Part shown: positions 436-49,250 of the stretch, in pieces
Layout: the number at the start of each line of letters is the position of its first letter
How positions within the stretch are numbered: position 1 is the first letter of the stretch
Origin: Syntrophomonadaceae bacterium
Lineage (GTDB): Bacteria; Bacillota; Syntrophomonadia; Syntrophomonadales; Syntrophomonadaceae
Direction: 5' to 3'
Length of the DNA: 64,000 nucleotides
NCBI GenBank assembly: GCA_035412805.1
Contig: DAONVO010000002.1
Location: 26 to 64,025 of the forward strand
Program-made: the position numbers and the translations under genes
Notes under the pieces: model-generated
Seen by the model: the letters and a program-made list of their open reading frames with translations, nothing else
Told to the model about the DNA's origin: nothing
Databases searched by the model: none

Positions 436-545
436 TGACCGACAAAGGCAAACTTGCCGAAAGGCAAGGACGCAAAGCCATGGGTCTAACGCTTCGAACA
501 GAAGTTATGATCGCCAGGCCGCCGAAGACAGGGTTTTTATATTTA
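436..545 (+). promoter_or_regulatory. c-di-GMP-I (GEMM-I) riboswitch
   Basis: Reads ACCGACAAAGGCAAAC-UUGCC-GAAA-GGCAA-GGACGCAAAGCC-AUGGGUCUAAC. This matches the diagnostic GGCAAAC / GNRA-capped hairpin / GGACGCAAAGCC core of GEMM-I. It sits in the 5' leader of the next CDS, and downstream CCCTC tracts could pair with the AGGAGGG RBS. Confidence 0.75.
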
Positions 546-27355: not shown

Positions 27356-27623
27356 TATCCCCTTTCCCCATATTCAGCTTTAAGTATTTTATTTTCCACA
27401 ATAACACCGATTTTTCCTCTCAATATTAAGTTTAAATTTTTACAGAAGTTAATCTATTCATATTAGGATCTTTTTCTTCATAAGTAATTAAGTGGCATTA
27501 TAGTTTTTTAATTGGTATTAAAGAAGGATTTCACATATCAAGGGGAGAATAATGATGGTGGTGTGGTCAGGCATATTTATGTCTGAGTGTAAAGCGAAAA
27601 ATAATTTCTAAGGGGGAAAGCTA

Positions 27624-28904
27624 ATGCAGAACGTGTATGTTGTGGAGGCTGCACGTACACCAGTAGCCCGTGCAGGAAAACAGTCTTGGTTTACCAACAT
27701 TCGTGCAGAGGAACTATCTGCCTTTGTCTTCAAAGAGCTGAGAAAGAGAATCGGCCTGGAAGACAAAGCAAAACAAGGTATCATTGATGACGTAGTGTGG
27801 GCAACCACCGCCAATGCCTTTATGGAACAGGGGTTGAACATAGGCCGCCTGGCTTGGATCCTGTCCGATGGTTCCTATGATGTTCCTGGTTGTACGGTTG
27901 ACCGGTTCTGTGCTTCTGGATTGAACTCCATTCAGTTTGCCATCGCCACCATGATGGTTGGCTGGGGCGGAGACGTTGAGATTGCCGGTGGTGTCCAACA
28001 TATGACCCATATTCCTATGGGTGCCGGTGCTGATCTCCATCCTGATTTGGGCAATTACATGAATTTAGGAGCAATTAACATGGGTTACACTGCTGAAATC
28101 GTAGCCCGCCGCTTTAACGTTACCCGTGAACAGCAAGACGAGTTTGCTATGGAATCCCACCTGAAGTGCGCCGCTGCTCAGGCTGCCAACAAGGTTAAAG
28201 ATGTCATTATCCCCATTCAAGTTAAAGTTCCGGCTAAAGGTGCCAAGGATACCAACCCGCACAACATGCCTGCCCTGTATGTAGCCAGCGATCACCTGGC
28301 TAAAGCCGCTGCTGAAAAAGGTGAAGAACTGGTAGAATGTGTCGTAGCCCGTGACCAGGGTGTACGCCCTGACACCAATATGGAAACTCTGGCCAAGATG
28401 CCCACTGTTTTCATGCAGGACGAAGCTGCCACCGTTACCGCTGGTAACGCCTCTCAGATCAATGACGCTGCTGCCGGTGTTGTCCTGGCCACCGACGAAG
28501 GTGCCAAGGCACTGGGCAAGAAGCCGATTATGAAGATGGTCAGCTGGGCAGTAGTTGGTCTGGAACCCGATATCATGGGTATCGGTCCTGCCCTGGCTAT
28601 ACCCAAGGTTCTCAAGAGAGCCGGTATGACCAAAGATCAGATCGATCTGTGGGAAATTAATGAAGCTTTCGCATCCCAGGCATACTACTGCAGAGAAACC
28701 CTGGGACTGCCCAAAGATCGTGTAAATGTATGGGGATCTGGTATTTCCATCGGCCATCCTCTGGCCTGCACCGGTGCCCGTATTGCCGCCGATATTACAG
28801 CCATGTTCAGAGATCCCGACTTTGCCGATGTAGAATACATCGTCGAGTCCATGTGTATCGGTCACGGTCATGGTGCTGCTGCTATTTGGCAGAGAGTAAA
28901 ATAA
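27624..28904 (+). CDS. acetyl-CoA C-acyltransferase (thiolase), copy 1
   Basis: 426 aa with active-site Cys (CASGLNS) and C-terminal GHPLACTG and CIGHGHG motifs. RBS is AAGGGGGA. Confidence 0.9.
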   Translation: MQNVYVVEAARTPVARAGKQSWFTNIRAEELSAFVFKELRKRIGLEDKAKQGIIDDVVWATTANAFMEQGLNIGRLAWILSDGSYDVPGCTVDRFCASGLNSIQFAIATMMVGWGGDVEIAGGVQHMTHIPMGAGADLHPDLGNYMNLGAINMGYTAEIVARRFNVTREQQDEFAMESHLKCAAAQAANKVKDVIIPIQVKVPAKGAKDTNPHNMPALYVASDHLAKAAAEKGEELVECVVARDQGVRPDTNMETLAKMPTVFMQDEAATVTAGNASQINDAAAGVVLATDEGAKALGKKPIMKMVSWAVVGLEPDIMGIGPALAIPKVLKRAGMTKDQIDLWEINEAFASQAYYCRETLGLPKDRVNVWGSGISIGHPLACTGARIAADITAMFRDPDFADVEYIVESMCIGHGHGAAAIWQRVK

Positions 28905-28968: not shown

Positions 28969-29265
28969 GTGTCAAAATGTCTATAATGACCGGGGAAATG
29001 TCAATCTTGCGTAATTTCTAAATATTTTTGATTTATTTTTGCATTGTAAATTACTAGACTATTAATTTATGTTATGAAATAATTTAACCAGAACCACCCT
29101 TCCCCATACATCAGGTACAGCTTAAATGCTGGCCAATATTACGAAAATTTAATCTTTTTCCGGGTTATAGATTCCTAACTACATTTATGAAATACTAATA
29201 GGTAAGCAGCAGGCTTGTAATTACAGCCTGTTTAGTGCGAAAACAAAAATTAAGGGGGAAAATGC

Positions 29266-30546
29266 ATGCAGAACGTATATGTTGTGGAGGCTGCACGTAC
29301 ACCAGTAGCCCGTGCAGGAAAACAGTCTTGGTTTACCAACATTCGTGCAGAGGAACTATCTGCCTTTGTCTTCAAAGAGCTGAGAAAGAGAATCGGCCTG
29401 GAAGACAAAGCAAAACAAGGTATCATTGATGACGTAGTGTGGGCAACCACCGCCAATGCCTTTATGGAACAGGGGTTGAACATAGGCCGCCTGGCTTGGA
29501 TCCTGTCCGATGGTTCCTATGATGTTCCTGGTTGTACGGTTGACCGGTTCTGTGCTTCTGGATTGAACTCCATTCAGTTTGCCATCGCCACCATGATGGT
29601 TGGCTGGGGCGGAGACGTTGAGATTGCCGGTGGTGTCCAACATATGACCCATATTCCTATGGGTGCCGGTGCTGATCTCCATCCTGATTTGGGCAATTAC
29701 ATGAATTTAGGAGCAATTAACATGGGTTACACTGCTGAAATCGTAGCCCGCCGCTTTAACGTTACCCGTGAACAGCAAGACGAGTTTGCTATGGAATCCC
29801 ACCTGAAGTGCGCCGCTGCTCAGGCTGCCAACAAGGTTAAAGATGTCATTATCCCCATTCAAGTTAAAGTTCCGGCTAAAGGTGCCAAGGATACCAACCC
29901 GCACAACATGCCTGCCCTGTATGTAGCCAGCGATCACCTGGCTAAAGCCGCTGCTGAAAAAGGTGAAGAACTGGTAGAATGTGTCGTAGCCCGTGACCAG
30001 GGTGTACGCCCTGACACCAATATGGAAACTCTGGCCAAGATGCCCACTGTTTTCATGCAGGACGAAGCTGCCACCGTTACCGCTGGTAACGCCTCTCAGA
30101 TCAATGACGCTGCTGCCGGTGTTGTCCTGGCCACCGACGAAGGTGCCAAGGCACTGGGCAAGAAGCCGATTATGAAGATGGTCAGCTGGGCAGTAGTTGG
30201 TCTGGAACCCGATATCATGGGTATCGGTCCTGCCCTGGCTATACCCAAGGTTCTCAAGAGAGCCGGTATGACCAAAGATCAGATCGATCTGTGGGAAATT
30301 AATGAAGCTTTCGCATCCCAGGCATACTACTGCAGAGAAACCCTGGGACTGCCCAAAGATCGTGTAAATGTATGGGGATCTGGTATTTCCATCGGCCATC
30401 CTCTGGCCTGCACCGGTGCCCGTATTGCCGCCGATATTACAGCCATGTTCAGAGATCCCGACTTTGCCGATGTAGAATACATCGTCGAGTCCATGTGTAT
30501 CGGTCACGGTCATGGTGCTGCTGCTATTTGGCAGAGAGTAAAATAA
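29266..30546 (+). CDS. acetyl-CoA C-acyltransferase (thiolase), copy 2
   Basis: Protein is 100% identical to copy 1. The antisense-frame ORFs are identical too, so the DNA is essentially identical. The only coding difference seen is synonymous (codon 5, GTG vs GTA). Confidence 0.9.
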   Translation: MQNVYVVEAARTPVARAGKQSWFTNIRAEELSAFVFKELRKRIGLEDKAKQGIIDDVVWATTANAFMEQGLNIGRLAWILSDGSYDVPGCTVDRFCASGLNSIQFAIATMMVGWGGDVEIAGGVQHMTHIPMGAGADLHPDLGNYMNLGAINMGYTAEIVARRFNVTREQQDEFAMESHLKCAAAQAANKVKDVIIPIQVKVPAKGAKDTNPHNMPALYVASDHLAKAAAEKGEELVECVVARDQGVRPDTNMETLAKMPTVFMQDEAATVTAGNASQINDAAAGVVLATDEGAKALGKKPIMKMVSWAVVGLEPDIMGIGPALAIPKVLKRAGMTKDQIDLWEINEAFASQAYYCRETLGLPKDRVNVWGSGISIGHPLACTGARIAADITAMFRDPDFADVEYIVESMCIGHGHGAAAIWQRVK

Positions 30547-30687: not shown

Positions 30688-31536
30688 GTGCGAACTCTTT
30701 GGAAAGGTGCAGTCAGCTTCGGCCTGGTTAATATACCTATCAAAATGTATGTGGCTACTGAACGGAAAGACATCAAGTTCAACTACCTGCATAAAGAGTG
30801 CATGTCTCCCATTCAGTACCGCAAGTTTTGTCCCAATTGTAACCGGGAAATTGCCAGTGAAGAAATTGTGCGCGGCTATGAATACCAGAAAGGCAATTTT
30901 GTAGTTATTAATGAGGAGGATTTGGAACGCATTCCTTTGGAGTCCACCAAAACTATTGACATCCTGGACTTTGTGGATTTAGCCCAGGTTGATCCGATTT
31001 ACTTTGATAAGACCTATTACCTGGAACCATCCCAGGGCGGTGAAAAAGCTTACACCCTTCTGATCGAAGCCATGACGCAAACTAGTAAGGTGGCTATCGC
31101 CAAAGTTATAATTCGCTCCAAACAAACTTTGGCTGCTCTGAGAGTTAAGGACCAGGTTTTAATAATGGAAACCATTTTCTGGCCGGATGAAATCCGTTCC
31201 CCTTCTGCCCTGGACCTAGGAGTAGACCGGGTAAAACTCCATGACAATGAAATAAAAATGGCGGTCAGTCTCATCGAAAACCTATCTACCGACTTTGAAC
31301 CGGCCAAGTATCAGGATGAACATCGCCAGGCTTTGTGGGAACTAATTGAAAGCAAGATCGTAGGAAAAGAAGTCGTAGCTGCGGCTCCGGCAGCTGACCG
31401 CGGCAATGTGGTGGATTTGATGGAGGCTTTAAAAGCCAGCGTCAAACTGGCGGAAGAAAACCGCAATGCCCAGCAGGCTGATTCCGAACCACGCCAGGCT
31501 TCCCGGGGGCGCCGCAAAACCAAAACCGGGAGTTAG
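30688..31536 (+). CDS. ku: Ku protein (NHEJ DNA-end binding)
   Basis: 282 aa. The N-terminus RTLWKGAVSFGLVNIPIKMY is typical of bacterial Ku, and the C-terminal tail is basic. GTG start after GGGGGT. Confidence 0.92.
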   Translation: MRTLWKGAVSFGLVNIPIKMYVATERKDIKFNYLHKECMSPIQYRKFCPNCNREIASEEIVRGYEYQKGNFVVINEEDLERIPLESTKTIDILDFVDLAQVDPIYFDKTYYLEPSQGGEKAYTLLIEAMTQTSKVAIAKVIIRSKQTLAALRVKDQVLIMETIFWPDEIRSPSALDLGVDRVKLHDNEIKMAVSLIENLSTDFEPAKYQDEHRQALWELIESKIVGKEVVAAAPAADRGNVVDLMEALKASVKLAEENRNAQQADSEPRQASRGRRKTKTGS

Positions 31537-31541
31537 CATCC

Positions 31542-32474
31542 GTGGTTGAAGTACCTGGTTTGGCTTTAGTTGAGCCAATGATGCCTATACTGGTCAAAGA
31601 AATAATTGAAGGCCTCGAGTATGTTTACCAGGTTAAATGGGATGGGGTGCGTATGCTGGCTTACCTTTCCGCAGGAAGGGTAACCCTGGTAAACAGGCGT
31701 GGCCACCTGCGCACCGGGCAGTACCCGGAACTGCAGGAGTTGGCTTCCTTGTTGAAAGTGCCTGCAGCAATATTGGATGGAGAATTGGTGGTCCTAAAAA
31801 ATGGCAAACCCAGTTTTGCATCGATTTTGAAAAGGGATTTAAGCGGCCGGCAAGCTGATCACCTTAAGAAACTTTATCCTATCCACTATATGGTTTTCGA
31901 CATCCCCTTTGCCGGTCGGGACCTGCGTAATCTGTCTCTGATGGAACGCCAAAGAGTACTGGAGCAAACTCTGGTGAAAACCGAATGGGTACATACCGTG
32001 GAGAATTTCAGCGCCGGTCACAGCCTTTTCGAAGCCGTAAAAGCACAGGATATGGAAGGAATTGTTATTAAACGGTCTACTTCTCCATACATAAGCGGAA
32101 AAAAACATCGTGACTGGCTGAAAGTCAAATACCGGCGCACCCAATATTGCGTGATTGGCGGGTATACCTTAAACGGAACCACAGTAAATGCCCTCCTACT
32201 GGGAGTCTATCACAATCAGAATCTACTCTATGTGGGCAAAGCCGGTACCGGTTTAAAACAGGAGGAATGGAGCGTATTAACCCGGGAATTATCCCGTATG
32301 TCCATCTCTCATTCACCCTTTGTCAACAAACCTCCCGCTCGGGGATACTATTTTGTACACCCCCGGTTAACGGTTAAAATCGAATTTGCAGAATGGACGG
32401 AGAGCCTTACTTTGCGGTCCCCGGTCATAACCGGCTTCAGCAACAAGCCGGCTGAAGACTGCCGCTTAGAATGA
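31542..32474 (+). CDS. ATP-dependent DNA ligase (LigD ligase domain, stand-alone)
   Basis: 310 aa with the adenylation motif VKWDGVR (KxDG) and an OB-fold C-terminus. Confidence 0.9.
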   Translation: MVEVPGLALVEPMMPILVKEIIEGLEYVYQVKWDGVRMLAYLSAGRVTLVNRRGHLRTGQYPELQELASLLKVPAAILDGELVVLKNGKPSFASILKRDLSGRQADHLKKLYPIHYMVFDIPFAGRDLRNLSLMERQRVLEQTLVKTEWVHTVENFSAGHSLFEAVKAQDMEGIVIKRSTSPYISGKKHRDWLKVKYRRTQYCVIGGYTLNGTTVNALLLGVYHNQNLLYVGKAGTGLKQEEWSVLTRELSRMSISHSPFVNKPPARGYYFVHPRLTVKIEFAEWTESLTLRSPVITGFSNKPAEDCRLE

Positions 32475-32491
32475 GTTGTAAGGAGGTACCT

Positions 32492-33400
32492 ATGAAAGAA
32501 CAGGTCACAATCGCCAGCCGGGAATTTGCTCTTTCCAACCTGGAAAAAGTGCTGTGGCCGGAAGATGGATATACCAAAGGGGAACTTATCAACTATTATG
32601 TGCAGGTGGCTCCCTATCTGCTTCCCCACTTAAGCGGGCGTCCTCTGGTATTGACCCGTTTCCCCGACGGCATCCACAGCAAAAGCTTTTATCAAAAAAA
32701 TGCCCCCGATTATCTGCCGGAATGGATCAGAACCTTCTCCTGGTATTCAGCTGATTCCCAGCGGGACATTAATTTCATAGTCGCAGATGAGCCAGCGACT
32801 CTGGCCTGGCTGGCTAATCAAGCCTGTATTGAAATGCATCCCTGGCTGTCAAGCATCCACAGCCTTAACTATCCTGATTTTGCAGTAATCGACCTGGATC
32901 CCTCCAAGGAAAGCAGTTACCGGGATGTAATCGATATTGCCCTAGTGGTCAAAGAACTGCTGGACAATTTGGACCTGCGCTCTTATCCTAAAACCTCTGG
33001 ATCAGAAGGATTGCATATTTACATCCCTATTATCAATTCCTACACCTATGAGCAGGTCCGTAAATTTGCCCAGGTGGTGGCAGCTCTCGTCGTAGAAGTG
33101 CTTCCTCAAATAGCTACTATTGAACGCACTGTAAAAATGCGAGGCAACAAAGTATATGTAGACTACCTGCAAAATGCCCTGGGTAAAACCCTCAGCAGCG
33201 TGTACAGCGTGCGTCCCCGTCCAGGTGCTCCTGTATCAACCCCTCTTTTATGGGACGAGATAACTCAGGTAACACCTGCCCAGTTTAACATAAAGACTAT
33301 TTTTCCCCGTTTACAGGAAAAGGGAGATTTGTTTGCGCCGGTATTATACGACCGGCAAAGCCTGGACCAAGCCTGCCGGAAGCTGGGTGTGTCCCTGTAA
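32492..33400 (+). CDS. LigD polymerase/primase (AEP) domain protein, stand-alone
   Basis: About 302 aa, LigD-Pol pattern (LSNLEKVLWPEDGYTKGELINYY...DLDP). ATG at 32492 follows the AAGGAGG RBS. Confidence 0.88.
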   Translation: MKEQVTIASREFALSNLEKVLWPEDGYTKGELINYYVQVAPYLLPHLSGRPLVLTRFPDGIHSKSFYQKNAPDYLPEWIRTFSWYSADSQRDINFIVADEPATLAWLANQACIEMHPWLSSIHSLNYPDFAVIDLDPSKESSYRDVIDIALVVKELLDNLDLRSYPKTSGSEGLHIYIPIINSYTYEQVRKFAQVVAALVVEVLPQIATIERTVKMRGNKVYVDYLQNALGKTLSSVYSVRPRPGAPVSTPLLWDEITQVTPAQFNIKTIFPRLQEKGDLFAPVLYDRQSLDQACRKLGVSL

Positions 33401-33466
33401 TTCTGAGACCCCAATCAATGGTGTATCAACTGAAGAACAGGCCATGATAAATGAAAACATGCCTCA

Positions 33467-33540
33467 CGGCTAATACTCCTGCATCCTGGCTGACACTCCT
33501 GCAAAACCGTGGTTAGCGTAGAGCGGCATAGAGGTTGCCA
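33467..33540 (+). repeat. fragment F1 of the structured element (3' arm + tail only)
   Basis: CGGCTAATACTCCTGCATCCTGGCTGACACTCCTGC...GGCATAGAG matches 34153-34220 and 49112-49175. Confidence 0.8.
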
Positions 33541-33700
33541 TGTTCCTTGCAGGAGCTCTTAGTTGCCAGTAGGTTGCCCTTCGCACCTGTTCCGTCGTCA
33601 CGATATAGTAAACGGCTCGATGTGCGTCTCAGGGGGTACCGGGCTAAACAAACATCCTGTTTGATAGCCCTCTTGGGACATCCTATCCCTCGCCCCCCTT
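33541..33700 (-). repeat. fragment F2, inverted and degenerate copy of the element
   Basis: The reverse complement carries TTAGCCCGG, CGAGCCGTT and TGCGAAG in element order. Diverged and internally deleted. Confidence 0.5.
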
Positions 33701-33790
33701 CGCCCGCCCATCTTCACCGACTATATCGGACTCCTTCACCAAGGTGCTCATGGCAAACCCACTGTCAAACTATTTTAGTAAAATGATAAC

Positions 33791-33909
33791 ATCGCTGCAC
33801 GGCTTAAGCAGGGAGTATTAGCTGGGCGAGTGACGTACGACGTGCCGTTGCAGGGTCCATCAGTAGTCCTTTAGGGCAATGACACATTAGGAAACCATCT
33901 TCACAGCAA
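33791..33909 (+). repeat. fragment F3, 5' arm joined to the terminal TTCACAGCAA motif (internal deletion variant)
   Basis: ATCGCTGCACGGCTTAAGCAGGGAGTATTAGCTGGGCGAGTGACGTACGACGTGCCGTTGCA is near-identical to 48900-48961. It ends in CTTCACAGCAAT. Confidence 0.8.
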
Positions 33910-33945
33910 TTATCACCTGTGGTACAGACCACGAATGAAAAAATA

Positions 33946-34294
33946 ATTGCATGGCTTAGGAAGAAATATTAGCCCGGCGAGCGACTTACGACGAGCCGTT
34001 GCTACCCACAGCGAAACTGAGGGCTGCGAAGCGGAGCGAGAAACAGGATGTTTCGAGCAGCAAGTACTGAGTGCATGGATGCCGAATTACGAGCGGACCG
34101 CTTCGCACCGAAGTAAGCTGGTGGGTTGCAGGCGAGGAGTCCCGGAGCGAGCCGGCTAATACTCCTGCATCCTGGCTGACACTCCTGCCAAGTTGTGGTT
34201 AGCGCAGGTGGACATAGAGATCGCCACGCGCTACGCGCTCGCGATGACAGTACAGCTGTCTTTTGCACTAACACGAGGACAGTTTTCACAGCAA
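33946..34294 (+). repeat. full copy A of an unclassified ~330-nt structured interspersed element (candidate ncRNA or non-autonomous mobile element)
   Basis: Aligns with 48900-49228 along its length at roughly 85% identity by eye. The core 33967-34161 folds as a nested long hairpin. The tail ends in TTTTCACAGCAAT. Confidence 0.85.
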
Positions 34295-48683: not shown

Positions 48684-48899
48684 TCAACAAACACCTCATT
48701 GAATGGGATCGGCAGCCTATTTTACCGTTCCCCAACATACACTAATTAATGTATCACTTTTATAATGGTAATGCCATTAATTAACCAAATACATTACATA
48801 CTCAACCAGTATTGTTGTGAAAACTCCTTTTACAGGAGTCGAAGTGTGACAGAAGGTTTGCCCTTAGCACTTGTGGCACAGGCCACGATAAGTGCAAAC

Positions 48900-49228
48900 A
48901 TCGCTGCACGGCTTAAGCAGGAAGTATTAGCCGGGTGAGCGACGTACGACGAGCCGTTGCAACACACGGCGAAACTGAGGGCTGCGAAACGGAGCGAGAA
49001 ACAGGATGTTTCGAGCAGCGAGAACTGAGTGCATGGATGCCGAATTCCGAGCGGTCCGTTTCGCACCGAAGTAAGCCGATGTGTTGCAGGTGAGGAGTCT
49101 TGGAGCGAGCCGGTTAATACCCCTGCATCCCGGCTAACACTCCTGCCGTGCCGTGGTAAGCTTAGACCGGCATAGAGTTTGCGCGCTCTTCGCGCTCACC
49201 AGAACACATAAGAAAGCATTTTCACAGG
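48900..49228 (+). repeat. full copy B of the structured interspersed element
   Basis: Collinear with 33946-34294. Core hairpin is at 48925-49119. The tail ends in ATTTTCACAGGAA. Confidence 0.85.
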
Positions 49229-49250
49229 AAGGAAGGGGTTATTGCCCCAC

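Follow-up and report, generated by a model that had tools for sequence, protein, structure and literature searches.

The repeat unit at the locus

A stretch of 64,000 nt (the window; contig DAONVO010000002.1, GC content about 47%) from a bacterium of the Syntrophomonadaceae (syntrophic Clostridia), known from anaerobic-digester metagenomes and not in culture, was analysed for a structured repeat at 33946-34294, designated copy A. Copy A sits between two convergent genes, encoding LigD (end 33400) and an MBL hydrolase (end 34359), in a spacer of 958 nt. A second copy, B (48890-49228), lies between two minus-strand genes, encoding a Germane protein and a racemase, and is antisense to both. Both window copies are strictly intergenic.

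The two copies were 86% identical. The longest gap-free alignment paired 33958-34224 with 48916-49182 (267 nt, 86% identity), and with the flanks the match extended over 33910-34240 and 48864-49197. The original prediction, made by a model from the letters alone, had placed the recurrence at 48900-49228 with roughly 85% identity, close to the measured value. The open reading frames (ORFs) overlapping the repeat had no Pfam match, and single-base insertions and deletions separated the copies. The repeat was therefore taken to be non-coding. Together with the copy number described below, this bore out the prediction of a non-coding, multicopy and interspersed unit. The unit is an intergenic repeat of about 265-450 nt that is specific to the Syntrophomonadaceae, and copy A represents one of its many occurrences.

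The unit consists of a leader, a core and an optional tail (Table 1). Among the first 16 copies, 5 to 13 had the leader ahead of the core, as did many of those from metagenomes. The core was the only part common to all copies.

Fold of the core

The core of about 210 nt was predicted to form a long rod topped by two GGA-loop hairpins on a three-way junction. All the helices named by the original prediction were found where it had placed them (Table 1), and P1 was longer than it had described, with about 17 bp in the majority of copies (GCAGGAGTATTAGCCGG / CCGGCTAATACTCCTGC). Between P1, P2 and P3 are loops rich in purines that contain tandem G.A pairs, and such pairs were also present in both apical hairpin stems. 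The motif GAGCGA, which had been counted five times, was found exactly three times; the other two occurrences were near-variants only.

Folding of the 213-nt core gave -86.1 kcal/mol (z = -4.4), which none of 200 shuffled sequences equalled. For the full 361 nt the z score was -3.0. The minus strand of the core gave -78.1 kcal/mol, so that the plus strand was better by 8 kcal/mol.

Covariation was examined with copies collected by an arm-based search pattern that is independent of the apex. This pattern retrieved 82 metagenome loci with 78 distinct cores, from which 54 representatives of less than 97% identity were taken, a large and diverse set in support of the fold. RNAalifold gave 47 consensus pairs for the 54 representatives (47-61 across analyses), of which 12 carried compensatory changes. 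Two pairs switched cleanly, with U-A in 20 and G-C in 28 representatives at one, and C-G in 24 and G-C in 14 at another. Within the apical domain, 9 pairs were doubly changed versus 3.5 in shuffled alignments (0 of 500 as high), and controls with slid partners gave at most 5. The check by covariation that had been proposed for this element thus yielded 9-12 doubly changed pairs.

In one variant, Watson-Crick pairs stood in hairpin 1 in place of the tandem G.A pairs. This indicated that the hairpin 1 region is helical. Paired positions held G-U in 108 cells and A-C in 21; counted by pair type, the numbers were 31 and 19. The G-U excess and the energy gap between the strands favour a structure on the plus strand, whether in RNA or in single-stranded DNA. 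The predicted rod, with its tandem G.A pairs and its plus-strand reading, was in agreement with this.

Relationship to the TwoAYGGAY family

The TwoAYGGAY motif (RF01731) was catalogued by Weinberg et al. 2010 (PMC2864571). As published, it has two AYGGAY loops and, in many cases, a very long P1 (about 24 bp), and it occurs in Clostridia and gammaproteobacteria. Tandem G.A pairs within its stem have been noted (PMC4333381).

At the gathering level, the sole Rfam match in the window was a c-di-GMP riboswitch. When the thresholds were relaxed, TwoAYGGAY matched the apex of both copies, at model positions 46-112 in copy A (Table 1). Syntrophomonas sp. DTU018 has a sister copy (L006), 83-91% identical to the window copies and 83% to copy B, which scored 43.9 bits over model positions 1-168, at the gathering score of 43.

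The reverse search was made with R1, a covariance model built from the Syntrophomonadaceae apical domain alone. R1 found the Rfam-positive loci L015, L011, L030, L003, L010 and L025 inside their Rfam matches, with E values of 1e-7 to 2e-4. It gave no match in the loop-pattern loci L047, L053, L056 and L028, which are from Bacteroidota, an archaeon and Chloroflexi.

The hairpins agreed with the family description. In copies A and B alike, hairpin 2 carries the AYGGAY-type loop GCAUGGAUGC. The sequence of hairpin 1 is ACA-GGAUGU, with the loop one base shorter, as it also is in the 119-bit member L015. The closing stem is formed by the P1 of about 17 bp together with P2 and P3.

Its sequence and predicted fold make the core a member of TwoAYGGAY, though a divergent one that scores below threshold. 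The sub-threshold Rfam match, the sister copy at the gathering score and the reciprocal detection by R1 place it in a known family, and the original description of the element as unclassified and outside Rfam is superseded. That description had named an Rfam search as a check and a known-family match as grounds for refutation; the search did return a known family, yet the window copies lay below the curated threshold. We hold the family identity, together with the dispersal of the unit described below, with high confidence.

The distribution of the motif was surveyed by a scan of a genome collection for the two-loop pattern, which gave 62 loci. Thirteen were from Syntrophomonas sp. DTU018 and one from Syntrophothermus; the remainder included many from Psychromonas and several from Lachnospiraceae and Oscillospiraceae. 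The Rfam TwoAYGGAY scores were 95-119 bits for the Lachnospiraceae copies, 50 for Psychromonas and 46 for Clostridium thermobutyricum. TwoAYGGAY belongs to Rfam clan CL00106, which was confirmed to be also the clan of Escherichia coli CsrB.

Two groups of distant members were seen in other settings. The Psychromonas loci (L008-L057) likewise form multicopy units, each about 350 nt in length, with a conserved downstream hairpin (ACTTTCTCTGCTGGCAGAGAGAAAGT). They are flanked on both sides by the direct repeat CGA(C/T)GAGCG(C/A)AGACGA, and in L010 two copies stand 640 nt from each other. In four Lachnospiraceae metagenome-assembled genomes (MAGs; L025, L030, L043 and L062), a high-scoring TwoAYGGAY lies 200-550 nt from a divergent gene for an HTH_3 and TPR regulator. 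The regulator resembles the RRNPP type by its domain content, and the synteny holds in all four MAGs. The Lachnospiraceae locus may be a stable, regulated small RNA (sRNA) locus.

Dispersal of the unit and insertion polymorphism

In the collected Syntrophomonadaceae contigs, 104 core matches fell into 68 distinct site groups. This answered the question of copy number that had been attached to the original prediction.

Three spacers were compared between the window and its relatives. The Germane-racemase spacer is 625 nt in the window, with the unit present. In three relatives (L075, L076 and L078; racemase 80-84% identical) it is 154-167 nt and empty, and in an 89% relative (L072) it is 360 nt, with leader and repetitive extragenic palindromic (REP)-like modules and no core. 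The next spacer, between the racemase and HGD-D genes, is 30 nt in the window and 27-39 nt in three relatives. In L072-74 it is 375 nt and holds a full unit, which spans TCATCAC...TTTTTCACAGCAAT. The LigD-MBL spacer, 958 nt in the window, is 316 nt in L164, with one compact unit (leader, core and end motif). It is 466 nt in L161, with core and REP-like modules, and 149 nt and empty in L163. Metagenome contigs of the same strain (L063-L071) had identical spacing and were uninformative on empty sites.

Copies that were truncated, core-less, chimeric or nested were also found. This block-wise gain and loss between close relatives, together with the imperfect copies, indicated that the unit is dispersed and probably mobile, as had been predicted. 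It is probably a mobile DNA without a mobilising gene of its own.

The ends of the unit gave no terminal inverted repeats: T(T/C)ATCAC.. and ..TTTTCACAGCAAT are not inverted copies of each other. No convincing target-site duplication was seen; the cleanest insertion was flanked by TAA/TAA, which may be chance. On the other hand, many unit junctions were at GCAAT, beside REP-like or end-motif modules. The end motif ..TTTTCACAGCAAT often stands directly before the next leader TATCACCTG.. (L079-L157; window 33898-33919). Alternatively, the leader follows ..CTCGCAAT of the REP-like hairpin. These abutments place GCAAT at both junctions of many units. The recurrent junctions could reflect tandem units or a site preference.

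ORF clustering around 62 and then about 100 loci, each of up to 14 kb, gave no recurrent transposase, reverse transcriptase or DUF3800 gene near the units. Nor did it give a conserved neighbour of any other kind: the clusters held only housekeeping proteins (two-component systems, ABC-F, CoA transferase, acyl-CoA dehydrogenase, RF, DnaX and MBL). The plasmid and phage collections gave no match to the unit.

The orientation of the copies was not random. In spacers between co-directional genes, the modelled strand was antisense in 23 cases and sense in 9 (p = 0.02; 68 site groups, L006-L160 and the window). Spacers between convergent genes were occupied 12 times versus 5 for divergent genes.

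Modular tail, fragments and a second subfamily

The tail was present in 11 of the first 16 copies at one end, falling to 3 at the other. Its modules are optional: the duplicate of the P1 3' arm, the REP-like GC hairpin, which also occurs solo and in both orientations, and the end motif TTTTCACAGCAAT. The predicted tail of a duplicated ACTCCTGC, a GC hairpin and a terminal motif was present with all its features; its supposed presence in every copy of the family did not hold. The end motif, T(T/C)TTCACAG(C/G)AA, starts at 33898, 34283 and 49219 in the window, and in the compact L164 copy it follows leader and core with the rest of the tail absent. A solo tail-type module was found without a TwoAYGGAY core (Table 1). 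The tail modules are thus repeats in their own right.

At least four pieces are nested in the LigD-MBL spacer: a core-less remnant, an inverted element, a truncated copy and copy A (Table 1). The first three had been missed by the original prediction. The inverted element belongs to a second subfamily of rods. It had no Rfam match at E<=10, and it was the best non-self R1 match in the window (33706-33628, 14.5 bits, E 0.27), with both GGA loops in register.

Copies of the second subfamily, 87-91% identical, were found beside subfamily-1 copies in five other contigs (those named were L149, L135, L139 and L133). The inverted element is also homologous to the 5' half of a chimera, L052 (7599-7819), whose two halves meet at hairpin 1, the 5' half being of subfamily 2 and the 3' half of subfamily 1. 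The chimera points to recombination between the subfamilies.

Table 1. Positions of the repeat units, their parts and related fragments in the window
Feature	Position	Strand	Remarks
Solo tail-type module without core: REP-like half AGATTGCCACGC..GCTCGC, then CATTTTCACAGCAA	20308..20432	+	
Core-less remnant: leader fused to P1 3' arm and tail start	33436-33545	+	As if core lost at CGGCT microhomology
Second-subfamily rod, apical hairpins GGGAUAGGAUGUCCC and CAAACAGGAUGUUUG	33560-33772	-	Fold z = -6.9
Truncated subfamily-1 copy: leader and P1/P2 5' arms (33805-33852), then tail end TCTTCACAGCAA	33781-33910	+	28 bits, E 3.5e-8
Leader module, copy A (TTATCACCTG..ACAGACCACGAATGAAAAA..GCATGGCTT)	33910..33957	+	Abuts end of preceding truncated copy
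Core rod, copy A: P1, P2, P3, G.A-rich internal loops, two-hairpin apex	33958..34168	+	nhmmer 237.7 bits
P1, copy A	33967-33978 / 34151-34161	+	
P2, copy A	34000-34009 / 34121-34130	+	
P3, copy A	34025-34034 / 34098-34107	+	
Apical domain, copy A: P3, hairpins 1 and 2	34020..34112	+	TwoAYGGAY 29.3 bits; R1 103.9 bits
Hairpin 1, copy A	34040-34054	+	GAAACA-GGA-TGTTTC, loop C-AGGAU-G
Hairpin 2, copy A	34073-34082	+	GCAT-GG-ATGC, loop AUGGAU
Optional tail, copy A	34169..34294	+	P1 3' arm duplicate 34169-34188; REP-like GC hairpin 34217-34249; end motif TTTTCACAGCAA 34283-34294
Entire inserted block at copy B site (ends approximate)	48798..49241	+	Missing from syntenic spacer in three relatives
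Parts of copy B block		 	Inverted end motif 48812-48823; leader ~48864-48916; core 48917-49126; tail end TTTTCACAGGAA 49219-49230
Apical domain, copy B	48978..49070	+	TwoAYGGAY 33.5 bits, E 7.7e-4 (241-nt search); R1 105.2 bits

A candidate CsrA decoy

The apical loops resemble CsrA binding sites. Among the 54 representatives, 44 had the consensus stem of hairpin 1, with the loop C-AGGAN-G, in which N, the base following GGA, was freely variable (U in 19, C in 15, G in 9 and A in 1). This loop matches the CsrB repeat CAGGA(U/C/A)G. The loop of hairpin 2 reads CAUGGAUG, which fits the SELEX/RsmE consensus CANGGANG. Seven GGA were present in 213 nt, versus a background of 0.0127 per nt. A spacing of 30 nt suits bridging by one CsrA dimer.

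The plus-strand transcript of each copy would carry, on a rigid rod, a pair of C-A(N)GGA-N-G loops separated by about 30 nt. The two loops would form a bidentate site for a single CsrA dimer, and the copies would jointly serve as CsrA decoys or sponges. Sequestration of CsrA in Clostridia was proposed for TwoAYGGAY by Gardner and Eldai (2015, PMC4333381) from a match between the loop and the CsrA motif. We regard the decoy function, which we infer here from the same kind of match, as a tentative possibility.

Several observations weigh against this function or against the family assignment on which it builds. The window copies stayed under the gathering score of 43 and matched model positions 43-115 only. 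No sigma-70-type promoter or intrinsic terminator belonging to copy A or B was found. The orientation bias at co-directional genes (23 versus 9) puts the modelled strand antisense at most sites, so that read-through cannot produce the RNA there. The domain of the GGA hairpins was no more conserved than the arms (0.068 versus 0.065-0.074 in the 54 representatives). Some copies (L072 and several others) have lost a GGA loop, which looks like neutral decay of a repeat and not like selection on every copy. Upstream of 25 gammaproteobacterial copies there was no GacA/UvrY box of at least 10/12, the best being 9/12. A tblastn search of the 64-kb window and 1.2 Mb of fragments found no csrA, which is uninformative for a search of less than the whole genome. 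In the literature, no published experiment linking TwoAYGGAY to CsrA was found.

Two other candidate signs of function were set aside. The leader was compared by eye with the sigma-D, sigma-H and sigma-54 consensus sequences; the likeness was unconvincing, and no claim is made. The apex had appeared about 5-fold less variable in the first 16 copies, and this difference was gone with the 54 arm-pattern representatives. The claim of apical hyper-conservation was withdrawn because the first 16 copies had been found by a loop-based pattern.

Two elaborations were also considered, which we regard, taken together, as rather improbable. The non-autonomous unit might spread a two-site CsrA-binding RNA, so that copy number sets the titration of CsrA. 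In a related reading, a mobilisation system specific for structure and directed at GCAAT in REP-like modules might use the GGA hairpins as its handle.

Alternative explanations

The unit might be purely selfish, non-autonomous DNA of the REP doublet (REPIN), miniature inverted-repeat transposable element (MITE) or palindrome-associated transposable element (PATE) type, its rod being a single-stranded DNA hairpin for an enzyme encoded elsewhere, with no role as RNA. The GGA loops would then be points of protein recognition. This would account for the filled and empty sites, for the nested, truncated and chimeric copies at 68 sites, and for the uniform divergence along the core with some loops decayed. 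It would also fit the missing promoter and terminator, the recurrence of GCAAT junctions beside REP-like modules, and the orientation bias relative to the flanking genes, hence probably to replication. That same bias, as judged from gene orientation, would put the minus strand on the lagging-strand template, whereas the G-U excess and the G.A pairs favour the plus strand. Neither terminal inverted repeats nor a clear target-site duplication were seen, and no transposase recurred within loci of up to 14 kb. Moreover, the same apex is single-copy and syntenic beside the HTH-TPR regulator gene in the four Lachnospiraceae MAGs, where it looks like a stable RNA gene. We consider the purely selfish explanation, which is the chief competitor of the decoy function, possible, though doubtful. 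An RNA-guided system, in which the core would be the omega RNA of TnpB or IscB or the bridge or seek RNA of IS110/IS1111, was suggested by a long structured RNA in a mobile unit without inverted repeats and by the junctions at GCAAT. The original prediction had proposed an omega-RNA-like scaffold or an IS200/IS605-type PATE. Neither proposal was supported: Rfam gave no match to the HEARO or IS605-orfB families, no tnpA, tnpB, iscB or IS110 gene was recurrent near the units (about 100 loci), and no subterminal hairpin pair was present. The internal loops vary (CGAAGUAA versus UUAAAGUUU) while the junction motif is constant, and therefore no loop tracks the target; no complementarity between loop and target that followed the GCAAT junction was seen. 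The apex loops are fixed GGA motifs and not programmable. A guide RNA is thus highly improbable.

Leader, core, duplicated arm, REP-like hairpin and end motif form a mosaic whose modules are optional. This mosaic, the strictly intergenic position of the window copies, the non-random orientation of the units and the repeated occupation of the convergent LigD-MBL spacer would suit a cis-acting intergenic structure of the REP/bacterial interspersed mosaic element (BIME), BOX or Correia kind. Such a structure would stabilise or terminate transcripts or insulate operons, with no role in trans. No T-run directly follows the stem, so that no terminator is predicted, and the functions of the flanking genes are unrelated. 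A mere stem would leave the conserved two-GGA apex and the family membership unexplained. We consider a solely cis-acting role unlikely. Overall, we lean slightly towards an amplified repeat with a TwoAYGGAY core and a putative CsrA-decoy function as the best explanation.

Significance

TwoAYGGAY has been an orphan since 2010. The sole functional idea is the predicted sequestration of CsrA in Clostridia, where no RNA antagonist of CsrA is known. Published abstracts name the protein FliW, and not an sRNA, as the known CsrA antagonist in Firmicutes. If true, the decoy reading would mean that Firmicutes have an RNA-type antagonist of CsrA, the first there, and that a mobile repeat can carry a regulator sponge, likewise a first. 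The interest would rise with proof of both binding to CsrA and autonomous spread, and the 93-nt apical domain is a concrete candidate for CsrA binding.

The motif and the functional hypothesis are already known. New are the lineage-specific, sub-threshold subfamily at tens of sites, the mosaic unit with insertion polymorphism, and the related second subfamily. Travel of the motif in a mobile intergenic unit bears on its spread to distant taxa and on its multicopy state. For annotation, the blocks of about 350 nt should be masked as repeats or non-coding RNA and not called as small ORFs.

Other features of the window

The c-di-GMP riboswitch (c-di-GMP-I-GGC, RF03167, 74.2 bits) was located at 438-527 (+), directly upstream of an ORF at 553-1536. 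A 300-nt direct repeat of 97% identity (27598-27897 and 29240-29539) lies over the starts of tandem thiolase genes (27624-28904 and 29266-30546), and appears to reflect a tandem duplication of the gene in the recent past. Next to the repeat nest, immediately upstream, is an operon for Ku, an ATP-dependent ligase and the LigD primase-polymerase (30688-33400, +). This is a bacterial non-homologous end-joining set, split into separate genes.

Comparison with known systems

PATEs and omega RNAs share with the unit the strong secondary structure, the orientation bias, and the absence of terminal inverted repeats and of an obvious target duplication. On the other hand, the unit lacked paired subterminal left- and right-end hairpins, TnpA or TnpB nearby, and a match to an omega-RNA family. 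It also differs from PATEs in the strand that folds best, which is not the one expected from the orientation bias but its complement.

Short interspersed repeats are known from several bacteria: REP and BIME from enterobacteria, BOX and the repeat units of pneumococcus (RUP) from pneumococci, and Correia elements from Neisseria. Like these and the REPINs, the unit is intergenic, non-coding, hairpin-forming and sometimes nested, with modules in variable order and orientation at tens of sites. It differs in that no REP-associated tyrosine transposase (RAYT) or other transposase partner was found and, unlike Correia or RUP, in having no terminal inverted repeats. Moreover, in place of a palindrome of 20-40 nt it has a core of 210 nt, an RNA motif with a three-way junction that also occurs in distant taxa.

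The sRNAs CsrB and CsrC, and likewise RsmX, RsmY and RsmZ, carry GGA in hairpin loops, as does the core, and fall in the same clan. The Rsm RNAs have multiple gene copies per genome. These sRNAs have 7-22 loop GGAs versus two per molecule here. In addition, no promoter, GacA/UvrY box or terminator was found for the unit, and its binding of CsrA is only predicted.

The closest relative is TwoAYGGAY itself. The window rod is longer (P1, P2 and P3, about 210 nt), and it lies inside a unit amplified to at least 68 sites with insertion polymorphism, a setting that the family papers examined do not describe. With TwoAYGGAY the core shares the adjacent AYGGAY-type hairpins in a long closing stem, the tandem G.A pairs of the stem, the occurrence in Clostridia and, often, the presence of several copies.

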